Shown here one piece after another: positions 3,437-9,866 of a DNA stretch of 34,832 nucleotides. Within the stretch, counting starts at the first letter, position 1. Every line of letters begins with the position of its first letter. The stretch lies in IMG/VR virus record IMGVR_UViG_3300009497_000003, positions 1 to 34,832 of that record. One strand, given 5' to 3'. Origin of the DNA: a virus. The translations under genes were made by a program, and so were the position numbers. Under the pieces are notes generated by a model. The model was not told where the DNA came from, did no database searches, and worked only from the letters and a program-made list of their open reading frames with translations.

Positions 3437-3582
3437 AGCAGTACGATTTAAGCAAACTGACACCAGAAGAAAGAGTGTTATGGAATTACTACCAAGATAA
3501 AATTCAGTATGAGGGGGTCATAGTATCCGAAAAGGCGAGAAAAAAATTGAAGGAACTTCAGAAAAAAGCCAGTACCAGATGA
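3433..3582 (+). CDS. hypothetical small protein (49 aa, MKQYDLSKLTPEERVLWNYYQDK...)
   Basis: Hand-translated ORF that exactly fills the gap between two genes, with ATGA overlaps at both ends. It is below the track cut-off. Confidence 0.5.
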   Translation: MKQYDLSKLTPEERVLWNYYQDKIQYEGVIVSEKARKKLKELQKKASTR

Positions 3583-4253: not shown

Positions 4254-4659
4254 GTACCAACTGAGTAAGTTGAAGAGATCCGGGATTGGAATTTCCTATG
4301 TAGCAGCTATGCTGAACGAATTGACTGCATTTGTTCGATGTGATCTGAATGATTTACAGGTGGTCCAAACTGCAGAAATGATTTGTCAGGAATTTTGGTA
4401 CCTGAAAGCTGAAGAGTTAATCTTGATATTCAAGAAGGGAATGAAGACCAAACAGTATGGTGGATTCAACTTCCAGATCTTCTGTGAGTGGGTTCAGAAT
4501 TACGAGCAAAGCAAATTGGAGGTCATAGAGAGTATGCATCAATCCATCAAGGGGAAATATCACATCAATGCTGAAAGGACCTCAGAAGTAGCCAGAATAA
4601 GCAAGGAGTCAATTGACTGGGCAAGTCAGCAGAAAGCAATTCAAAACCTGAAGAAATGA
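4243..4659 (+). CDS. hypothetical protein (138 aa; start uncertain)
   Basis: The track ORF starts at 4168, which would give an 86-nt overlap. The ATG at 4243 overlaps the upstream stop by only 11 nt. Confidence 0.55.
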   Translation: MKSEYQLSKLKRSGIGISYVAAMLNELTAFVRCDLNDLQVVQTAEMICQEFWYLKAEELILIFKKGMKTKQYGGFNFQIFCEWVQNYEQSKLEVIESMHQSIKGKYHINAERTSEVARISKESIDWASQQKAIQNLKK

Positions 4660-5576
4660 GGCACGGAAGTCTATTCTCTGGAATTGGTGGCTTTGACCTT
4701 GCTGCAGAATGGATGGGGTGGGAGAACGTCTTCCATTGTGAGTGGAACGAGTTCGGAAGAAAAGTATTAAATCATTATTGGCCTGAATCAAAAAGCTATG
4801 AAGACATCACTAAGACAGACTTCACTATTCACAGAGGAGAAATCGACGTACTCACCGGAGGATTCCCATGTCAACCATACTCAACAGCCGGAAAGCGAAA
4901 AGGGAAGGAAGACGAACGCCATCTCTGGCCTGAAATGCTTAGAGCAATTCGAGAGATTAAGCCGACCTACGTTGTGGGCGAAAATGTTCGCGGCCTTGTT
5001 AATTGGTCAGGGGGATTGGTATTCGAGGAGGTGTGCGCTGACTTGGAAGCTGAAGGGTACGAAGTACAGCCGTTTCTACTTCCAGCTTGCGGCAAAGACG
5101 CTCCACACAGAAGAGATCGAATCTGGTTTGTTGCCCACCGTAACAACGGAAACGGGGAGAAAGTCGGACTTCAAGCAAGGAGGGAAGAGTATTTGGACGG
5201 GCTTAAAGACGTCAGGGATGCTGCCAACTCCAAGAGAAGCCGCAGCGAGAGGGAACACATCAATAGACAGAAACAAAGGAAACTTGGAAGATGTGATAGC
5301 GAGAATGCTCCCAACACCTACGGCAAGCGAGGGTGGAACAAAAATGACGGGGAACGAAAAGGAGAAAAGAAGTGTACTACAATTAGTCAAGCAAGCGCAT
5401 GGGAAAACTTCCCAACTCAATCCCCGATTTGTGGCGGAGATGATGGGCTTCCCGACAAATTGGACGGAATTACCTTTCCTAAATGGAGAAACGAAAGCAT
5501 TAAAGCCTACGGAAATGCGGTAGTGCCTCAGATACCTTTTGAGATATTCAAAGCAATTCAAAACCTGAATGAATGA
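4656..5576 (+). CDS. dcm: DNA (cytosine-5)-methyltransferase
   Basis: Motif I is LFSGIGGFD, motif IV is GGFPCQPYS, motif VI is VVGENVRGL, motif VIII is PHRRDRIWFVA and motif X is AYGNAVVPQIP. The TRD region is a charged low-complexity tract. Confidence 0.9.
   Translation: MRHGSLFSGIGGFDLAAEWMGWENVFHCEWNEFGRKVLNHYWPESKSYEDITKTDFTIHRGEIDVLTGGFPCQPYSTAGKRKGKEDERHLWPEMLRAIREIKPTYVVGENVRGLVNWSGGLVFEEVCADLEAEGYEVQPFLLPACGKDAPHRRDRIWFVAHRNNGNGEKVGLQARREEYLDGLKDVRDAANSKRSRSEREHINRQKQRKLGRCDSENAPNTYGKRGWNKNDGERKGEKKCTTISQASAWENFPTQSPICGGDDGLPDKLDGITFPKWRNESIKAYGNAVVPQIPFEIFKAIQNLNE
4798..5523 (+). other. Nested +1-frame ORF (241 codons) inside dcm with methyltransferase-like motifs
   Basis: No stop codon occurs for 726 nt in the second + frame. 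The C-terminal half reads LLPTVTTE...MLPTPREA...MLPTPTASEGG...QLNPRFVAEMMGFPTNWT. Its status is unresolved: dual coding, recoding, an indel pair or a composition effect. Confidence 0.3.
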
Positions 5577-6071: not shown

Positions 6072-6215
6072 ATGATGTGCTACATTGAATATTTAAATGC
6101 GGAAGAAGGTCACAGACTTACACGCAGAATCTTCATGAACTTCGACAAAGCAGAAGCATGGGGACGGAAACAACTCAGCAATTTTAGTTACGACATGATA
6201 CACCTTTTGAAATGA
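6072..6215 (+). CDS. hypothetical small protein (47 aa, MMCYIEYLNAEEGHRL...)
   Basis: Hand-translated. It starts directly after the leader, and its stop overlaps the next ATG (ATGA). Confidence 0.5.
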   Translation: MMCYIEYLNAEEGHRLTRRIFMNFDKAEAWGRKQLSNFSYDMIHLLK

Positions 6216-6796
6216 GACAGACAGACGAAGAATTCGAGCAAGAGATTCAGCAAAAGCGAGAACTCAGAAAAATAGAGAAAGAAATTAGGTCCAACTTAGA
6301 AGGAGCCGACTTAAAGATCTTCAGAACAGGAGTAAACAATGAAAAGGTGATGATTTATGTATCTGGTTTCGAGTTTCTGGAGGAGGTAATTACAAAATAC
6401 CCACCAACTAAGTTGAGTCGATTCATAGAGCATGGAAGAACCGAAAATGAATTGTTGAGTCCATACAAATTGGACATTGAAAACAAAGTTCGAGAATCAG
6501 CCGACTTAGCCATTCGATACATTTCTGGAAATCATGAAGTTTGGATTAAAGGAAAAATGCCTCCAGACATTAAAGCGAAATACTGCGTGATAGGTAATAG
6601 AAATTTACCTACATCTTGCTACCATTACTTCACAGGAGTCTCTGGTTCCCAATTAAGGTCCATGAAATTACCAGACTTGAAATGGAATTCAAACTACAAA
6701 ATGTTAAACTGGTACGGAGGACAACATACATTGATGGATGAGTATGCAGTCGAGCTGATAATGGAATCATTGAAAAAACTAAAAAAAGAAGCATGA
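6212..6796 (+). CDS. hypothetical protein (194 aa)
   Basis: ORF track entry, coupled to both neighbours. Confidence 0.65.
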   Translation: MRQTDEEFEQEIQQKRELRKIEKEIRSNLEGADLKIFRTGVNNEKVMIYVSGFEFLEEVITKYPPTKLSRFIEHGRTENELLSPYKLDIENKVRESADLAIRYISGNHEVWIKGKMPPDIKAKYCVIGNRNLPTSCYHYFTGVSGSQLRSMKLPDLKWNSNYKMLNWYGGQHTLMDEYAVELIMESLKKLKKEA

Positions 6797-7476
6797 AGAC
6801 AAAGAGTATTCCTATCAAGGAAATAAAGCCGAACCCGAACAACCCAAGGTTGATAAAAAAAGATCGGTTCAATCGATTAAAAAAGTCAATCAAGCGCACT
6901 CCTTCATTCATGGAACTGAGGCCAGTCATTCTGGATAAGAACAATGTCATTCAAGGAGGAAACATGAGGTTGGCAGCTTGCAAGGACCTGAAATGGAAAC
7001 TCATTCCGGTTGATGTCTATACTGAAGAAAGGTATCAGCAGGATCTTGAAGCCAGAAGAGAAGAAGCAAAAGAAAATCAAGTCGAGTATGTTGATGAATC
7101 CTACGAAGATCTGTGTCGAGAATTTGTAATCAAAGACAACCACCACGAAGGTCAGTGGGACTACGATGTTCTTGCAAACGAATGGCCTGCAGAAACTTTG
7201 TTCGACATGGGAATTGAGATACCCGGAGTAGAGAACATTAAAAGCGACCAAGATTTTGAGGACCGCTTCAATAGAATGGGTGATGAAACAGCTTTATATC
7301 CAATTGCCCCAAGATTCGATGAGGACCATGAGTTGATTGTAATAGTTTGTGAAACTGAAATCGACTTGAACTGGATTCGGGAGCGTCTTGGTATGCAAAA
7401 GATGAAATCCTATAAACGAGCAGAAATAGCCAAGTCAAATGTTATTCATGTAAACGACCTGAAGAATGTCTTGTAA
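6793..7476 (+). CDS. ParB-like N-terminal (ParB/Srx nuclease-like) domain protein
   Basis: The sequence reads IPIKEIKPNPNNPRLI...LKKSIKRTPSF..PVILDKNNVIQGGNMRLAACKDLKW..IPVDV, followed by DNHHEGQWDYDVLANEW...DMGIEIPG. This resembles the ParB-domain modules usually fused to phage or plasmid DNA methylases. No methylase domain follows here. Confidence 0.7.
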   Translation: MKTKSIPIKEIKPNPNNPRLIKKDRFNRLKKSIKRTPSFMELRPVILDKNNVIQGGNMRLAACKDLKWKLIPVDVYTEERYQQDLEARREEAKENQVEYVDESYEDLCREFVIKDNHHEGQWDYDVLANEWPAETLFDMGIEIPGVENIKSDQDFEDRFNRMGDETALYPIAPRFDEDHELIVIVCETEIDLNWIRERLGMQKMKSYKRAEIAKSNVIHVNDLKNVL

Positions 7477-8206
7477 AATAGTAGTACCAAGCCACAACAG
7501 AGCCGACAGGGTGCTAACTACTGAAGTGATAGACTCACCTATCATTTGTGTAGAAAAGTCTCAGGAGGAAGCTTATAAAGAGTACAACCCAGACTGCGAA
7601 ATTGTAAGTCACCCAGATTCGGTGAGGGGATTGGTTCCCAAAAGGAACTGGATGTTGAATCATTTTGGAGATCTGTTCATGGTGGATGACGATTGTTTGT
7701 CCTTCAGGAAGATGTATGTTGACATGGGTGAACACCAGAAAGTTGACAGCAAAATGGAGGTCAACCAAAGAATCTTAGAGTTGTACGACTTAGCAAAGAC
7801 TCTTGGGGTTCACCTTTTCGGATTTACCAAGAACCCAAGGCCGGAACAATATCCAGTATTCAAGCCTTTCTCTATGAGCAATTGCATCAATGGAGGAGCG
7901 TATGGAGCCATACAAGGGGAACACGTTGTCTGGAACGAGGAGTTCAAGCTAAAAGAAGACTTCATGATATCTTGCTTAGTCAAGCACCACTACAGGAAGA
8001 TTCTCATTGATAACAGGTACAACTTTTCACACAGAGAAACTTTCAAAAGCACTGGAGGGTTGGCTGAAATCCGAAACCATGATGAAGAAATCAAGAACAT
8101 TCTAAGATTGAGAAAGTATTTTGGTGATGTAGTCAACCTAAAGAAGAACCGGATCAGTAGTAAGTTGGTAAAGAAATACGATGTCACGGTAAGATTCAAG
8201 TTTTGA
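7466..8206 (+). CDS. putative GT-A-fold glycosyltransferase-like protein (DxD)
   Basis: The N-terminal beta-strand/loop KIVVPSHNRADRV and the motif LFMVDDDC (DxD) look like nucleotide-sugar transferases, including the TET/JBP-associated GT-like proteins described in phages. The assignment is by eye only. The gene overlaps the ParB-like gene by 11 nt. Confidence 0.4.
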   Translation: MSCKIVVPSHNRADRVLTTEVIDSPIICVEKSQEEAYKEYNPDCEIVSHPDSVRGLVPKRNWMLNHFGDLFMVDDDCLSFRKMYVDMGEHQKVDSKMEVNQRILELYDLAKTLGVHLFGFTKNPRPEQYPVFKPFSMSNCINGGAYGAIQGEHVVWNEEFKLKEDFMISCLVKHHYRKILIDNRYNFSHRETFKSTGGLAEIRNHDEEIKNILRLRKYFGDVVNLKKNRISSKLVKKYDVTVRFKF

Positions 8207-8218
8207 AGTATCAATCAC

Positions 8219-8241
8219 TTTAGGATAAATGCCTATATTTC
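8219..8241 (+). promoter_or_regulatory. Bacteroidota-type promoter cassette (copy 4)
   Basis: The sequence is TTTAGGATAAATGCCTATATTTC. The -7-like box TATATTTC is at 8234-8241. The leader AGTCAATTACAAACAAACAAA precedes the ATG at 8263. Confidence 0.6.
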
Positions 8242-8262
8242 AGTCAATTACAAACAAACAAA

Positions 8263-8838
8263 ATGAACCTAAGAACAAAACGTGGATATGACTTTTACGA
8301 AGCTGCGAGTACACTTCAAAAAGCAATTAGACGAAACGATGTCAAAGTAGCAGGATTCTTTGCTCTGGAACTTTGGGAGTCAGGATACCGGAACTATGTC
8401 TGGAAAAGACTTTTCACAATTTCAGCCGAAGATCTTGGAGGGATGATCACCAAGGAAGTTGACGCCCTTTACCGGGGACATGAACTGGTCAATAAAAATG
8501 CCAAAGGACCCAAAGGAAGAATCTTTGTAAGCAAGGCAGTAATGTTGATGTGCCAGTGGCCAAAGAACAGGGACGCAGACCATCTGCAGAACTTTGTTTA
8601 CGACAAGTACATGGGACTCTCTGAAGAGGACATAGAAAAGCAACTGGATGAAGACAGGAAAGATCCTTTAATAGTTCCAGAATACGCCTTCGATGTTCAC
8701 ACGAAACGAGGAAAAATGATGGGCAAAACCAAAGCCGACTTCATAAAGGATGAGTATGAATGTTTGGACCCAAAACAACCCGGTCTATTCGATGAAATGG
8801 TGAATTGGGGATGGCCAAAGCCACATAAATTGAAGTAA
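8263..8838 (+). CDS. stand-alone RarA/MgsA C-terminal-domain (MgsA_C-like) protein, no ATPase domain
   Basis: [34 protein letters not shown]...[14 protein letters not shown] aligns by eye with the E. coli RarA segment [55 protein letters not shown] aligns with PKSNAVY, and [12 protein letters not shown] aligns with VHLRNAPTKLMKEMG. Confidence 0.65.
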   Translation: [191 protein letters not shown]

Positions 8839-8847
8839 TCCAATAAT

Positions 8848-9072
8848 ATGACAAAAGCAGATCAAACACCAGATAATGCGACTCATTTCCTAAAGTGTAG
8901 ACACGTTTACGGAGACAAAGCAATTGACTACCTTATGCCCTGTATTGTAGTCGGACGAAACAAGAGAACGAACATGACCAGAATACTTGTTTTCGGAAAT
9001 CGGTTCAAGGGAAACACTGAAAAGAAAAACTATAGGTATGTCCACCCAAATCAAATTGAGTTGAAGAAATGA
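8848..9072 (+). CDS. hypothetical protein (74 aa)
   Basis: ORF track entry with ATGA coupling to the next gene. Confidence 0.55.
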   Translation: MTKADQTPDNATHFLKCRHVYGDKAIDYLMPCIVVGRNKRTNMTRILVFGNRFKGNTEKKNYRYVHPNQIELKK

Positions 9073-9866
9073 ATGTAATCATTACAGGAAGCGAAGGCTT
9101 TATAGGTAAAAACCTACAGGAAAGGCTTGGGTTTCTTTTGGGTATTGGAATAATTGAAAACCTGAAAGTCCTCGGAATAGACATGAAAAATGGGGAAGAT
9201 GTAAACCTCATCGATATGTATGCCAACTTCAAACCAGACGTAATCATTCATTTAGCTGCAGAAGTATCGGTATGGAACCCGAATCATGAAATCATTGTCC
9301 ATAGCAACGTCCGGGGATTCATAGCCGCCTCACAATACGCAAGAGAAATTGGAGCAAAATTTATATACGCCAGTAGCAGTGCGGTCATTAAAAGAACCTC
9401 TCTTTACGGAATCAGTAAGCACATGAACGAAGAGTACTGCAGAATATACCACCCGGAAGCAATCGGCCTTCGATTTCACAACGTCTACGGACCACAACAG
9501 AGAACTTCGTCGCTTTTTGGCATCATTCAGTCAAAGAAGCCATTCAAGGTATTCAACTATGGACAGAACACCAGAACATTCACCCACGTTCACAATGTCT
9601 TAGACGCAATATTGTACTACATGGAAAACGATGGACCTCCAATTGTCTCAGTAATGAGTCCGGAAACATCGACAACACTGGAATTCGTGAAGGAGTGTGA
9701 AAACTACCTTTACCTTGACTATGAAGTAGTCCCTGAAGAGAGAGAGTTCGACGTTGTAGAACAGGCCATCGACCAAAATATACCTGTTTTCCAAAAAACG
9801 CAGTACCTTCGTATTGCAGAAGGAATCAGAGAGTCGCTTTATTCGAACTTAGATGAACAAAACTGA
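9069..9866 (+). CDS. NAD-dependent epimerase/dehydratase (extended SDR) family protein
   Basis: The Rossmann motif is IITGSEGFIGKNL. Other SDR features are the catalytic region ASSSAV, YGISKHMNEEY (YxxxK), RFHNVYGP and RTFTHVHNV. At 265 aa it is shorter than typical GalE-like enzymes. Confidence 0.75.
   Translation: MNVIITGSEGFIGKNLQERLGFLLGIGIIENLKVLGIDMKNGEDVNLIDMYANFKPDVIIHLAAEVSVWNPNHEIIVHSNVRGFIAASQYAREIGAKFIYASSSAVIKRTSLYGISKHMNEEYCRIYHPEAIGLRFHNVYGPQQRTSSLFGIIQSKKPFKVFNYGQNTRTFTHVHNVLDAILYYMENDGPPIVSVMSPETSTTLEFVKECENYLYLDYEVVPEEREFDVVEQAIDQNIPVFQKTQYLRIAEGIRESLYSNLDEQN

Follow-up and report, generated by a model that had tools for sequence, protein, structure and literature searches.

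A single stretch of phage DNA very probably encodes, in two reading frames, the two polypeptides of one DNA (cytosine-5) methyltransferase (C5 methyltransferase). The stretch is IMG/VR virus record IMGVR_UViG_3300009497_000003, positions 1 to 34,832, and it is the whole of these 34,832 nucleotides (nt) that is called the window hereafter; it is phage DNA, in which RecT, a primosomal protein, terminase, a portal protein and the major head protein are encoded. Two open reading frames (ORFs) on the same strand are present in the ORF list, namely alpha (4656..5576, 306 aa) and beta (4798..5523, 241 aa), the latter lying entirely inside the former in the +1 frame and covering 726 of its 921 nt (79%). 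Alpha has the motifs of a catalytic subunit, and beta would supply the small domain that alpha lacks. A preliminary description of the window had reported both ORFs at these same coordinates and had offered four explanations for them (genuine dual coding, recoding, a pair of compensating indels, or chance); among these, genuine dual coding is the choice supported by comparison of the sequence with its relatives. The two genes and their elements are listed below.

4656..5576, plus strand: alpha gene, large (catalytic) subunit of a C5 cytosine methyltransferase (PF00145, TIGR00675 dcm, PHROG 363)
4671..4691, plus strand: alpha motif I, LFSGIGG, S-adenosylmethionine binding
4860..4874, plus strand: alpha motif IV, GFPCQ, with the catalytic cysteine, aligned to GFPCQ of M.HhaI
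4980..4988, plus strand: alpha motif VI, ENV
5109..5132, plus strand: alpha motif VIII, RRDRIWFV, the same bases giving GLLPT in beta
5136..5399, plus strand: alpha linker, aa 161-248, of low complexity (column conservation, codon-position variability, composition)
5511..5531, plus strand: alpha motif X, GNAVVPQ, with the beta stop TAG (5521-5523) inside it
4798..5523, plus strand: beta gene, putative small subunit with recognition region and motif IX (ORF list, homologues, PHROG 1008)
4798..4800, plus strand: beta start ATG, formed from the alpha Tyr-Glu codons (taT Gaa) in the conserved segment SYEDITKTDF
4798..5127, plus strand: beta N-terminal region, aa 1-110, over alpha motifs IV-VIII, the putative docking part
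5128..5319, plus strand: beta variable region, putatively for recognition, with three (L/M)LPT(P/V) modules (5128-5142, 5218-5232, 5305-5319)
5395..5490, plus strand: beta motif IX block, putative (HGKTSQLNPRFVAEMMGFPTNWTELPFLNGE; hhalign, phmmer with the chimera described below, conserved at 0.8-0.9)

Beta begins at alpha codon 48, and the overlap includes motifs IV to VIII as well as the low-complexity tract. The +1 frame is open for 726 nt, as had been said of it, but not over exactly that tract, for the ORF opens about 110 codons farther upstream. Alpha motifs I, IV, VI, VIII and X are found where they had been placed, and so are the three (L/M)LPT(P/V) elements of the +1 frame: the beta translation reads LLPTV (5128-5142), MLPTP (5218-5232) and again MLPTP (5305-5319), then QLNPRFVAEMMGFPTNWT, with QLNPRFV at 5413-5433 and MMGFPTNWT at 5440-5466. 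The same nucleotides do encode DDGLP in alpha (5439-5453) and MMGFP in beta (5440-5454). At its two ends, alpha is joined to its neighbors by ATGA overlaps, its start (4656-4659) with the stop of the upstream ORF and its stop (5573-5576) with the start of the downstream ORF, which suggests translational coupling within an operon.

Regarding alpha, the match to PF00145 extends over positions 1-323 of 324 (E 2.7e-48), and TIGR00675 dcm and PHROG 363 (1.8e-72) are matched as well. Motifs I, IV (with the PCQ catalytic cysteine), VI, VIII and X of the PF00145 class all lie within the alpha polypeptide; motif IX and a conserved target-recognition region between motifs VIII and X, which also characterize the class, are absent from alpha alone. 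In a phmmer comparison with M.HhaI, native alpha scores 82.4 bits and only its residues 3-167 are aligned (on M.HhaI 14-177), with no motif IX/X domain in the alignment. The preliminary description could not find motif IX in the alpha frame either, and both the relatives and the alignments now locate it in the +1 frame. Residues 161-248 of alpha are unconserved as protein, the commonest residue reaching 0.1-0.3 per column at low occupancy; alpha codon position 1 is the most variable one in the variable region (1.68 bits), and the linker is rich in S, N, E, R, G, K and Q, with 12.5% T in the window. The alpha linker is the out-of-frame shadow of the putative beta recognition region, kept free of stops.

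Beta belongs to a large family. A homologue search in a set of 5.8 billion proteins returned 3422 sequences, the best at E 1e-70 with 53-55% identity and about 100% coverage, and no Pfam domain was found among the 120 homologues listed. With a profile of 83 beta sequences, the number of clusters matched at 50% identity is 22,669. Searches of Pfam and NCBIfam give nothing for beta, and it does match PHROG 1008, labeled 'DNA methyltransferase' (E 2.9e-21, 77 bits; beta 15-225 against positions 37-281 of the 329 in the profile), so that the +1 protein has a significant profile hit in addition to its homologues and clusters. The resemblance of the +1 frame to motif IX, which the preliminary description had noted together with one to the PTPTA-repeat C-termini of phage C5 methylases, is borne out by hhalign, which places beta 200-229 on M.HhaI 267-296, i.e., on motif IX, with 37% identity (P 0.0019). 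In the alignment of the relatives, beta shows islands of conservation over the stretch where alpha (161-248) has none, the block GKTSQLNPxFVAEMMGFPTNWTELPFLNGET is strongly conserved, and in the N-terminal region, conserved as well, residues G44, C47, W60, F64, W74, C79, W83, R92 and Y94-L97 are invariant or nearly so. MLPTPTAS is conserved at 0.6-0.9 in beta, and the same bases at only about 0.5 in alpha. Between one and five (L/M)LPTPxAxD modules can be found in the relatives, and beta length (189-362 aa) follows the number of modules (r 0.67). A relaxed hhalign comparison of the PTPxA modules with the recognition loop of M.HhaI gave zero-confidence columns only; the modules may resemble the 'TL' motif of other enzymes. 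Beta motif IX is thus a putative assignment, made from a short, well-placed alignment together with the family label.

Whether beta carries the element that alpha lacks can be judged from a chimera consisting of alpha 1-160, beta 114-236 and alpha 284-306. By phmmer, this chimera scores 91.4 bits against M.HhaI and gains a second aligned domain, with a three-residue gap only, in which motif IX comes from beta and is aligned to M.HhaI 268-310, and motif X comes from alpha. Since the chimera gains the IX-X domain and native alpha stops at residue 167, beta supplies, collinearly, what alpha lacks.

The frame layout of the window is shared by its relatives. The loci compared comprise 80 from IMG/VR, three other relatives (L001-L003), the window itself and, in addition, loci from GTDB genomes, the relatives having been retrieved with beta as the query. 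Motifs IV, VIII and X in one frame together with motif IX in the +1 frame relative to it are found in 82 of the 82 loci with placeable motifs in the IMG/VR-based set, and in all 71 scorable loci from GTDB genomes, mostly of Bacteroidota. With the +1 translation as query, tblastn leads to the methyltransferase genes of Bacteroides phages BKO1-TP3 and BS-TP4, where the hit is once more in the +1 frame relative to the annotated gene, in nested ORFs of 320 and 372 aa. The layout can also be found in Paenibacillus phage Bloom, Synechococcus phage S-H1, Mycobacterium phage Hades and Acinetobacter phage ABMM1. In total, about 150 independent loci share it, and the isolated phages span five bacterial phyla; such conservation excludes an assembly error or a recent pair of indels. 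Stops in homologous genes would have spoken against the +1 frame, and it stays open in them. IMG/VR 3300025894_001115 (L005) matches the window at 100% identity across beta residues 1-169 and IMG/VR 3300025832_000437 (L004) is 77% identical, so that the window probably stems from that environmental phage or from one almost indistinguishable from it. The nearest cellular relatives come from genomes of Flavobacterium, Aquimarina and Pedobacter, which points to Bacteroidota for the host of the window phage.

The ends of beta are kept as well. In 76 of 82 loci its stop is placed at -11 or +10 nt relative to the G of GNA, and the spacing from motif IX to motif X is 71 nt in most loci. In 70 of 82 loci, and in 58 of the 71 genome loci, the beta ATG precedes GFPCQ by 59, 62 or 74 nt; the alpha codon pairs that form it differ from locus to locus (Y-E/A/G, N/D/H-D, P-N-A). 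An ATG kept at three neighboring positions by different alpha codons is as expected for a start site that is in use. In Bloom (L084, about 765-787), a GGGAGG is seen 12 nt upstream of the beta ATG, within the alpha coding sequence. In ABMM1 (L087 1047-1961), beta (298 aa) starts 4 nt after the alpha ATG, with near-complete overlap of the two frames, and alpha and beta of this phage could share one ribosome-binding site.

Both frames bear marks of selection. In the resampling used, one protein was held fixed and synonymous codons were drawn from the usage of the family itself. With alpha fixed, the +1 frame from the beta ATG to motif VIII is expected to be open with P of about 0.01 per locus (about 3.9 stops expected), which amounts to about 0.5 loci out of 48, and all 48 have it open. 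With beta fixed, the alpha frame from motif VIII to motif X would be open with P of about 0.001 per locus (about 0.06 expected), and it is open in 46 of 49; the alpha linker is also open in 70 of 71 genome loci. The third frame, taken as control, has 12.0 stops for 11.7 expected. Four-fold synonymous sites of alpha have about 1.6 bits where alpha is the only coding frame, a value that falls to 0.96 bits over the IV-VIII overlap (p 9e-4) and to 0.56 bits over that with motif IX (p 1.4e-3), and the codon periodicity in the variable region follows beta (1.31, 1.22 and 1.67 bits). Constraint by codon position thus follows the +1 frame in the variable region, with alpha synonymous sites suppressed in the overlap, and frames open over such a length are not predicted by resampling or shuffling. 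In the window itself, when the order of the alpha codons is permuted, 0.02% of trials keep all 242 codons of the +1 frame free of stops, the mean being 5.6 stops. If only the T-poor tract is considered, the share of stop-free permutations is 10.7%, a figure that makes fair the caution about base composition expressed at the outset and for which the comparison with relatives is needed.

A minus-strand ORF (5076..5561, 161 aa) is also present across the dual-coded region and was considered as a candidate gene. It is rejected, the equivalent frame being stop-free in 1 of 49 relatives, and can be viewed as a by-product of the T-poor plus strand.

In single-chain C5 enzymes, the small domain, comprising the variable region and motif IX, is inserted between motifs VIII and X, and all specific DNA contacts are made there (PMC3404938). 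For this reason, alpha can be read as the large domain and beta as a separate small domain. Alpha would be the catalytic large domain, with motifs I-VIII, then a flexible linker where single-chain enzymes have the small domain, then motif X. Beta would be translated independently from its own ATG at 4798 in the +1 frame, and would constitute the small domain, with a variable, target-recognition region made of (L/M)LPTPxAxD modules followed by motif IX; its N-terminal part of about 110 aa probably docks onto alpha. For comparison, trimming the beta subunit of M.EcoHK31I at its N-terminus weakens association (PMC2836561). The two window proteins are presumably both made and would assemble into an enzyme that is collinear with single-chain enzymes such as M.HhaI, in the order motif VIII, recognition region, motif IX, motif X. 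That beta would hold target recognition is judged from its position and conservation only. As to origin, it is plausible that an ancient pair of +1 and -1 frameshifts arose in a single-chain gene, and that the shifted frame was then extended upstream.

Several observations weigh against this two-subunit enzyme. Considering that the loci were retrieved with beta, the complete openness of the beta frame is partly selected for, which does not apply to that of alpha. By PF00145 score, the chimera (168.8 bits) is hardly distinguished from native alpha (165.5 bits), and with the values for a shuffled insert (157.4 bits) and a deletion (149.9 bits) the spread is still not wide enough to decide; the phmmer comparison with M.HhaI gives the clearer picture. 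The motif IX alignment of beta is short (30 columns, P 0.0019), and the beta profile alone finds nothing at E <= 10 among the sequences of the PDB. An AlphaFold2 (AF2) model of beta alone, made with 83 homologues, is poor (predicted local distance difference test, pLDDT, 56; predicted template modeling score 0.26), residues of about 40-100 reaching pLDDT 64-82, and Foldseek with this poor model finds nothing in the PDB at E <= 0.001. In M.EcoHK31I, the literature places the target-recognition domain (TRD) on alpha, whereas alpha of the window has an unconserved linker between motifs VIII and X and the variable region is on beta. Finally, some relatives have a single stop in the alpha linker with beta intact (L003/L019, in L003 at 3516-3518; L029, L030, L032 and L033; L041; L104), which is unexpected if full-length alpha is always required. 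The stop of L029-L033 is identical in contigs of four samples and is probably real for that reason. In L065, the stop lies in the alpha catalytic domain.

Among other explanations, it can be proposed that beta is a real protein overprinted on the methyltransferase gene and having a separate function, e.g., as a regulator or as some other protein that binds DNA. The lack of Pfam and NCBIfam matches would fit such a protein, as would a conserved N-terminal region of 110 aa that resembles nothing known and a beta model unlike methyltransferase structures. Yet beta holds exactly the element absent from alpha, at the collinear position, and its PHROG family is labeled as a DNA methyltransferase. 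Furthermore, among the loci inspected, ORFs of the beta type are found only over the 3' part of a C5 methyltransferase catalytic ORF and in its +1 frame, and no other Pfam domain is present in seven long proteins of the beta family; nor is beta fused in frame with a PF00145 domain in any of these seven. A separate function is considered improbable.

Programmed recoding, with a +1 shift after motif VIII and a -1 shift before motif X yielding one canonical chain, would make the nested ORF the shifted middle of a single protein. The chimera is indeed collinear with M.HhaI, including the spacing from motif IX to motif X with its gap of three residues only, that spacing being a constant 71 nt in most loci. 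Mycobacterium phage Hammer (gp91/gp90, L168 898-1897) provides a further argument: its first ORF ends right after motif VIII, and PTPxARDWKG modules, motif IX and motif X all lie in one frame in the +1 ORF, so that a single +1 shift would join motifs I-VIII to the frame with the recognition region, IX and X. In the window layout, though, two shifts in opposite directions would be required. No X_XXY_YYZ heptamer is common to more than 2 of 59 loci at any position in the 100 nt before motif X, which agrees with the lack of a slippery heptamer already remarked for the window, +1-type sites and stimulatory RNA structures not having been looked for. The first LLPT module is read from the bases that also encode FVA of motif VIII. 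Recoding would also leave unexplained the openness of alpha over about 90-220 linker codons, as well as about 110 upstream codons of conserved open +1 frame with a maintained ATG, and M.EcoHK31I works as two separately expressed chains (PMC2836561). Recoding is accordingly held to be quite unlikely, and the two-subunit enzyme is preferred. The Hammer form suggests that the nested and tandem types are related by the movement of one frame junction.

The absence of any second gene, whether by chance and composition, compensating indels or an assembly error in the contig, would be in keeping with the T-poor tract being stop-free in 10.7% of permutations and with the open minus-strand frame of the window, but it has almost no probability left and is excluded, as far as the sequence comparisons go, by the 0.02% of permutations in which the whole ORF stays open, the 48 open frames for about 0.5 predicted, the minus-strand frame being open in only 1 of 49 relatives, a layout that recurs across about 150 independent loci as well as among isolated phages from five bacterial phyla, and beta homologues down to E 1e-70.

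The two-subunit enzyme is of a kind already known, through M.EcoHK31I in 1995, the Paenibacillus phage annotations and PHROG 1008, and the window gene is a new member of it. M.EcoHK31I, from E. coli HK31 (recognition sequence YGGCCR), is an alpha/beta C5 methyltransferase (Lee, Kam & Shaw, 1995, as reported in PMC2836561 and PMC3404938) with motifs I-VIII and X on alpha and motif IX on beta, both chains being required (PMC2836561; PMC3404938). As in the window, two polypeptides come from one gene, beta lying wholly within alpha in another frame, and the distribution of motifs in the window (I-VIII and X on alpha, IX on beta) matches the published description, the comparison having been made by description and not by sequence. 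Besides the location of the TRD, the window differs in that beta spans 79% of alpha. Moreover, M.EcoHK31I is part of a restriction-modification system, whereas the window enzyme is phage-borne and belongs to a module for replication and DNA modification, the neighboring ORFs that were scanned giving no restriction-endonuclease match.

In Bloom, a phage of Paenibacillus larvae, two nested coding sequences (BLOOM_56/57) are both annotated as 'DNA cytosine methyltransferase'. They have the same architecture as in the window, with an alpha 36% identical over its full length and a beta in the +1 frame bearing PTP modules and LNPxWVECLMGFPIGWT; the window version differs in belonging to a clade whose members come chiefly from genomes and phages of Bacteroidota. 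In the Paenibacillus phage genome paper, both genes are listed and the nesting is not discussed. Mycobacteriophage records often list two methylase genes at the locus. In the M.AquI-type split, the larger subunit has motifs I-VIII and the smaller one motifs IX-X (PMC3404938). M.AquI thus resembles the window pair in having two polypeptides split in the variable region after motif VIII, and the relative in Hammer has the M.AquI form; unlike in M.AquI, motif X of the window is in the alpha frame and beta is nested and stops inside motif X, the ORFs not being in tandem. With M.HhaI, the window enzyme has in common the catalytic motifs and the order in which they stand, and the alpha-beta-alpha chimera is collinear, whereas the variable region and motif IX of the window are read from another frame and presumably belong to a separate chain. 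Reviews treat two-polypeptide C5 methyltransferases as rare exceptions (PMC3404938), and no survey of nested methyltransferase genes in phages was found in the literature. What seem under-appreciated are the scale of the phenomenon and the conserved variable region on beta instead of alpha.

A possible DNA-hypermodification module (window 6793-9866) lies 2 kb downstream of the methyltransferase and includes the following genes.

6793-7476: ParB_N-like gene
7466-8206: TET-associated glycosyltransferase (PF20691, E 1.2e-14, above the curated cut-off)
9069-9866: NAD-dependent nucleotide-sugar epimerase

In published 5mYOX pathways of phages, glycosyltransferases, ParB and epimerases often occur together (PMC13229309), and comparable neighborhoods have been described for phage 5-methylpyrimidine dioxygenase pathways (PMC8256090, PMC13229309). 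The window methyltransferase may feed such a glycosylating module, and no TET/JBP dioxygenase is recognizable between 2.7 and 10.2 kb of the window. An ORF at 6212-6796 (194 aa), joined to the ParB-like gene by an ATGA overlap, is located where the dioxygenase would be expected. It has no Pfam or PHROG match and one near-identical homologue in 5.8 billion proteins, its single-sequence AF2 model has a pLDDT of 39, and nothing supports reading it as a hidden TET-like dioxygenase.

The wider consequences concern both annotation and experiment. Standard gene callers disallow a gene inside a gene, and one of the pair is dropped: in both metagenome contigs inspected, beta is called (with no Pfam match) and alpha is not, and in several phage GenBank records alpha alone is annotated. 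Codon optimization or silent editing of alpha destroys beta, and heterologous tests would for this reason wrongly report inactive enzymes. Phage C5 methyltransferases of clades III-VI reportedly have aberrant motifs IX, X and TRD and, on expression, are inactive or nearly so (PMC8256090, Burke et al., 2021). If some of these enzymes were alpha/beta pairs with beta lost or unexpressed, their inactivity could be explained.

The comparisons made here suggest that two-polypeptide C5 methyltransferases are common in phages; that a nested or +1-frame beta is common, perhaps even typical, among phage orphan C5 methyltransferases, and no peculiarity of a single E. coli enzyme, is a more tentative proposal, for which we would claim less than even confidence. 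If this proposal holds, such enzymes would be inactive once alpha is codon-optimized or annotated alone, the alpha linker would be selected only for staying open, and beta would be the whole small domain, with module number (1-5) setting the specificity or providing several specificities. The beta family, with its 22,669 clusters at 50% identity, has no Pfam model. With about 240 dual-coded codons kept across phages of five bacterial phyla, and with AquI-like and EcoHK31I-like variants among the relatives, it amounts to a large natural data set in which the rise and persistence of overlapping genes can be studied.

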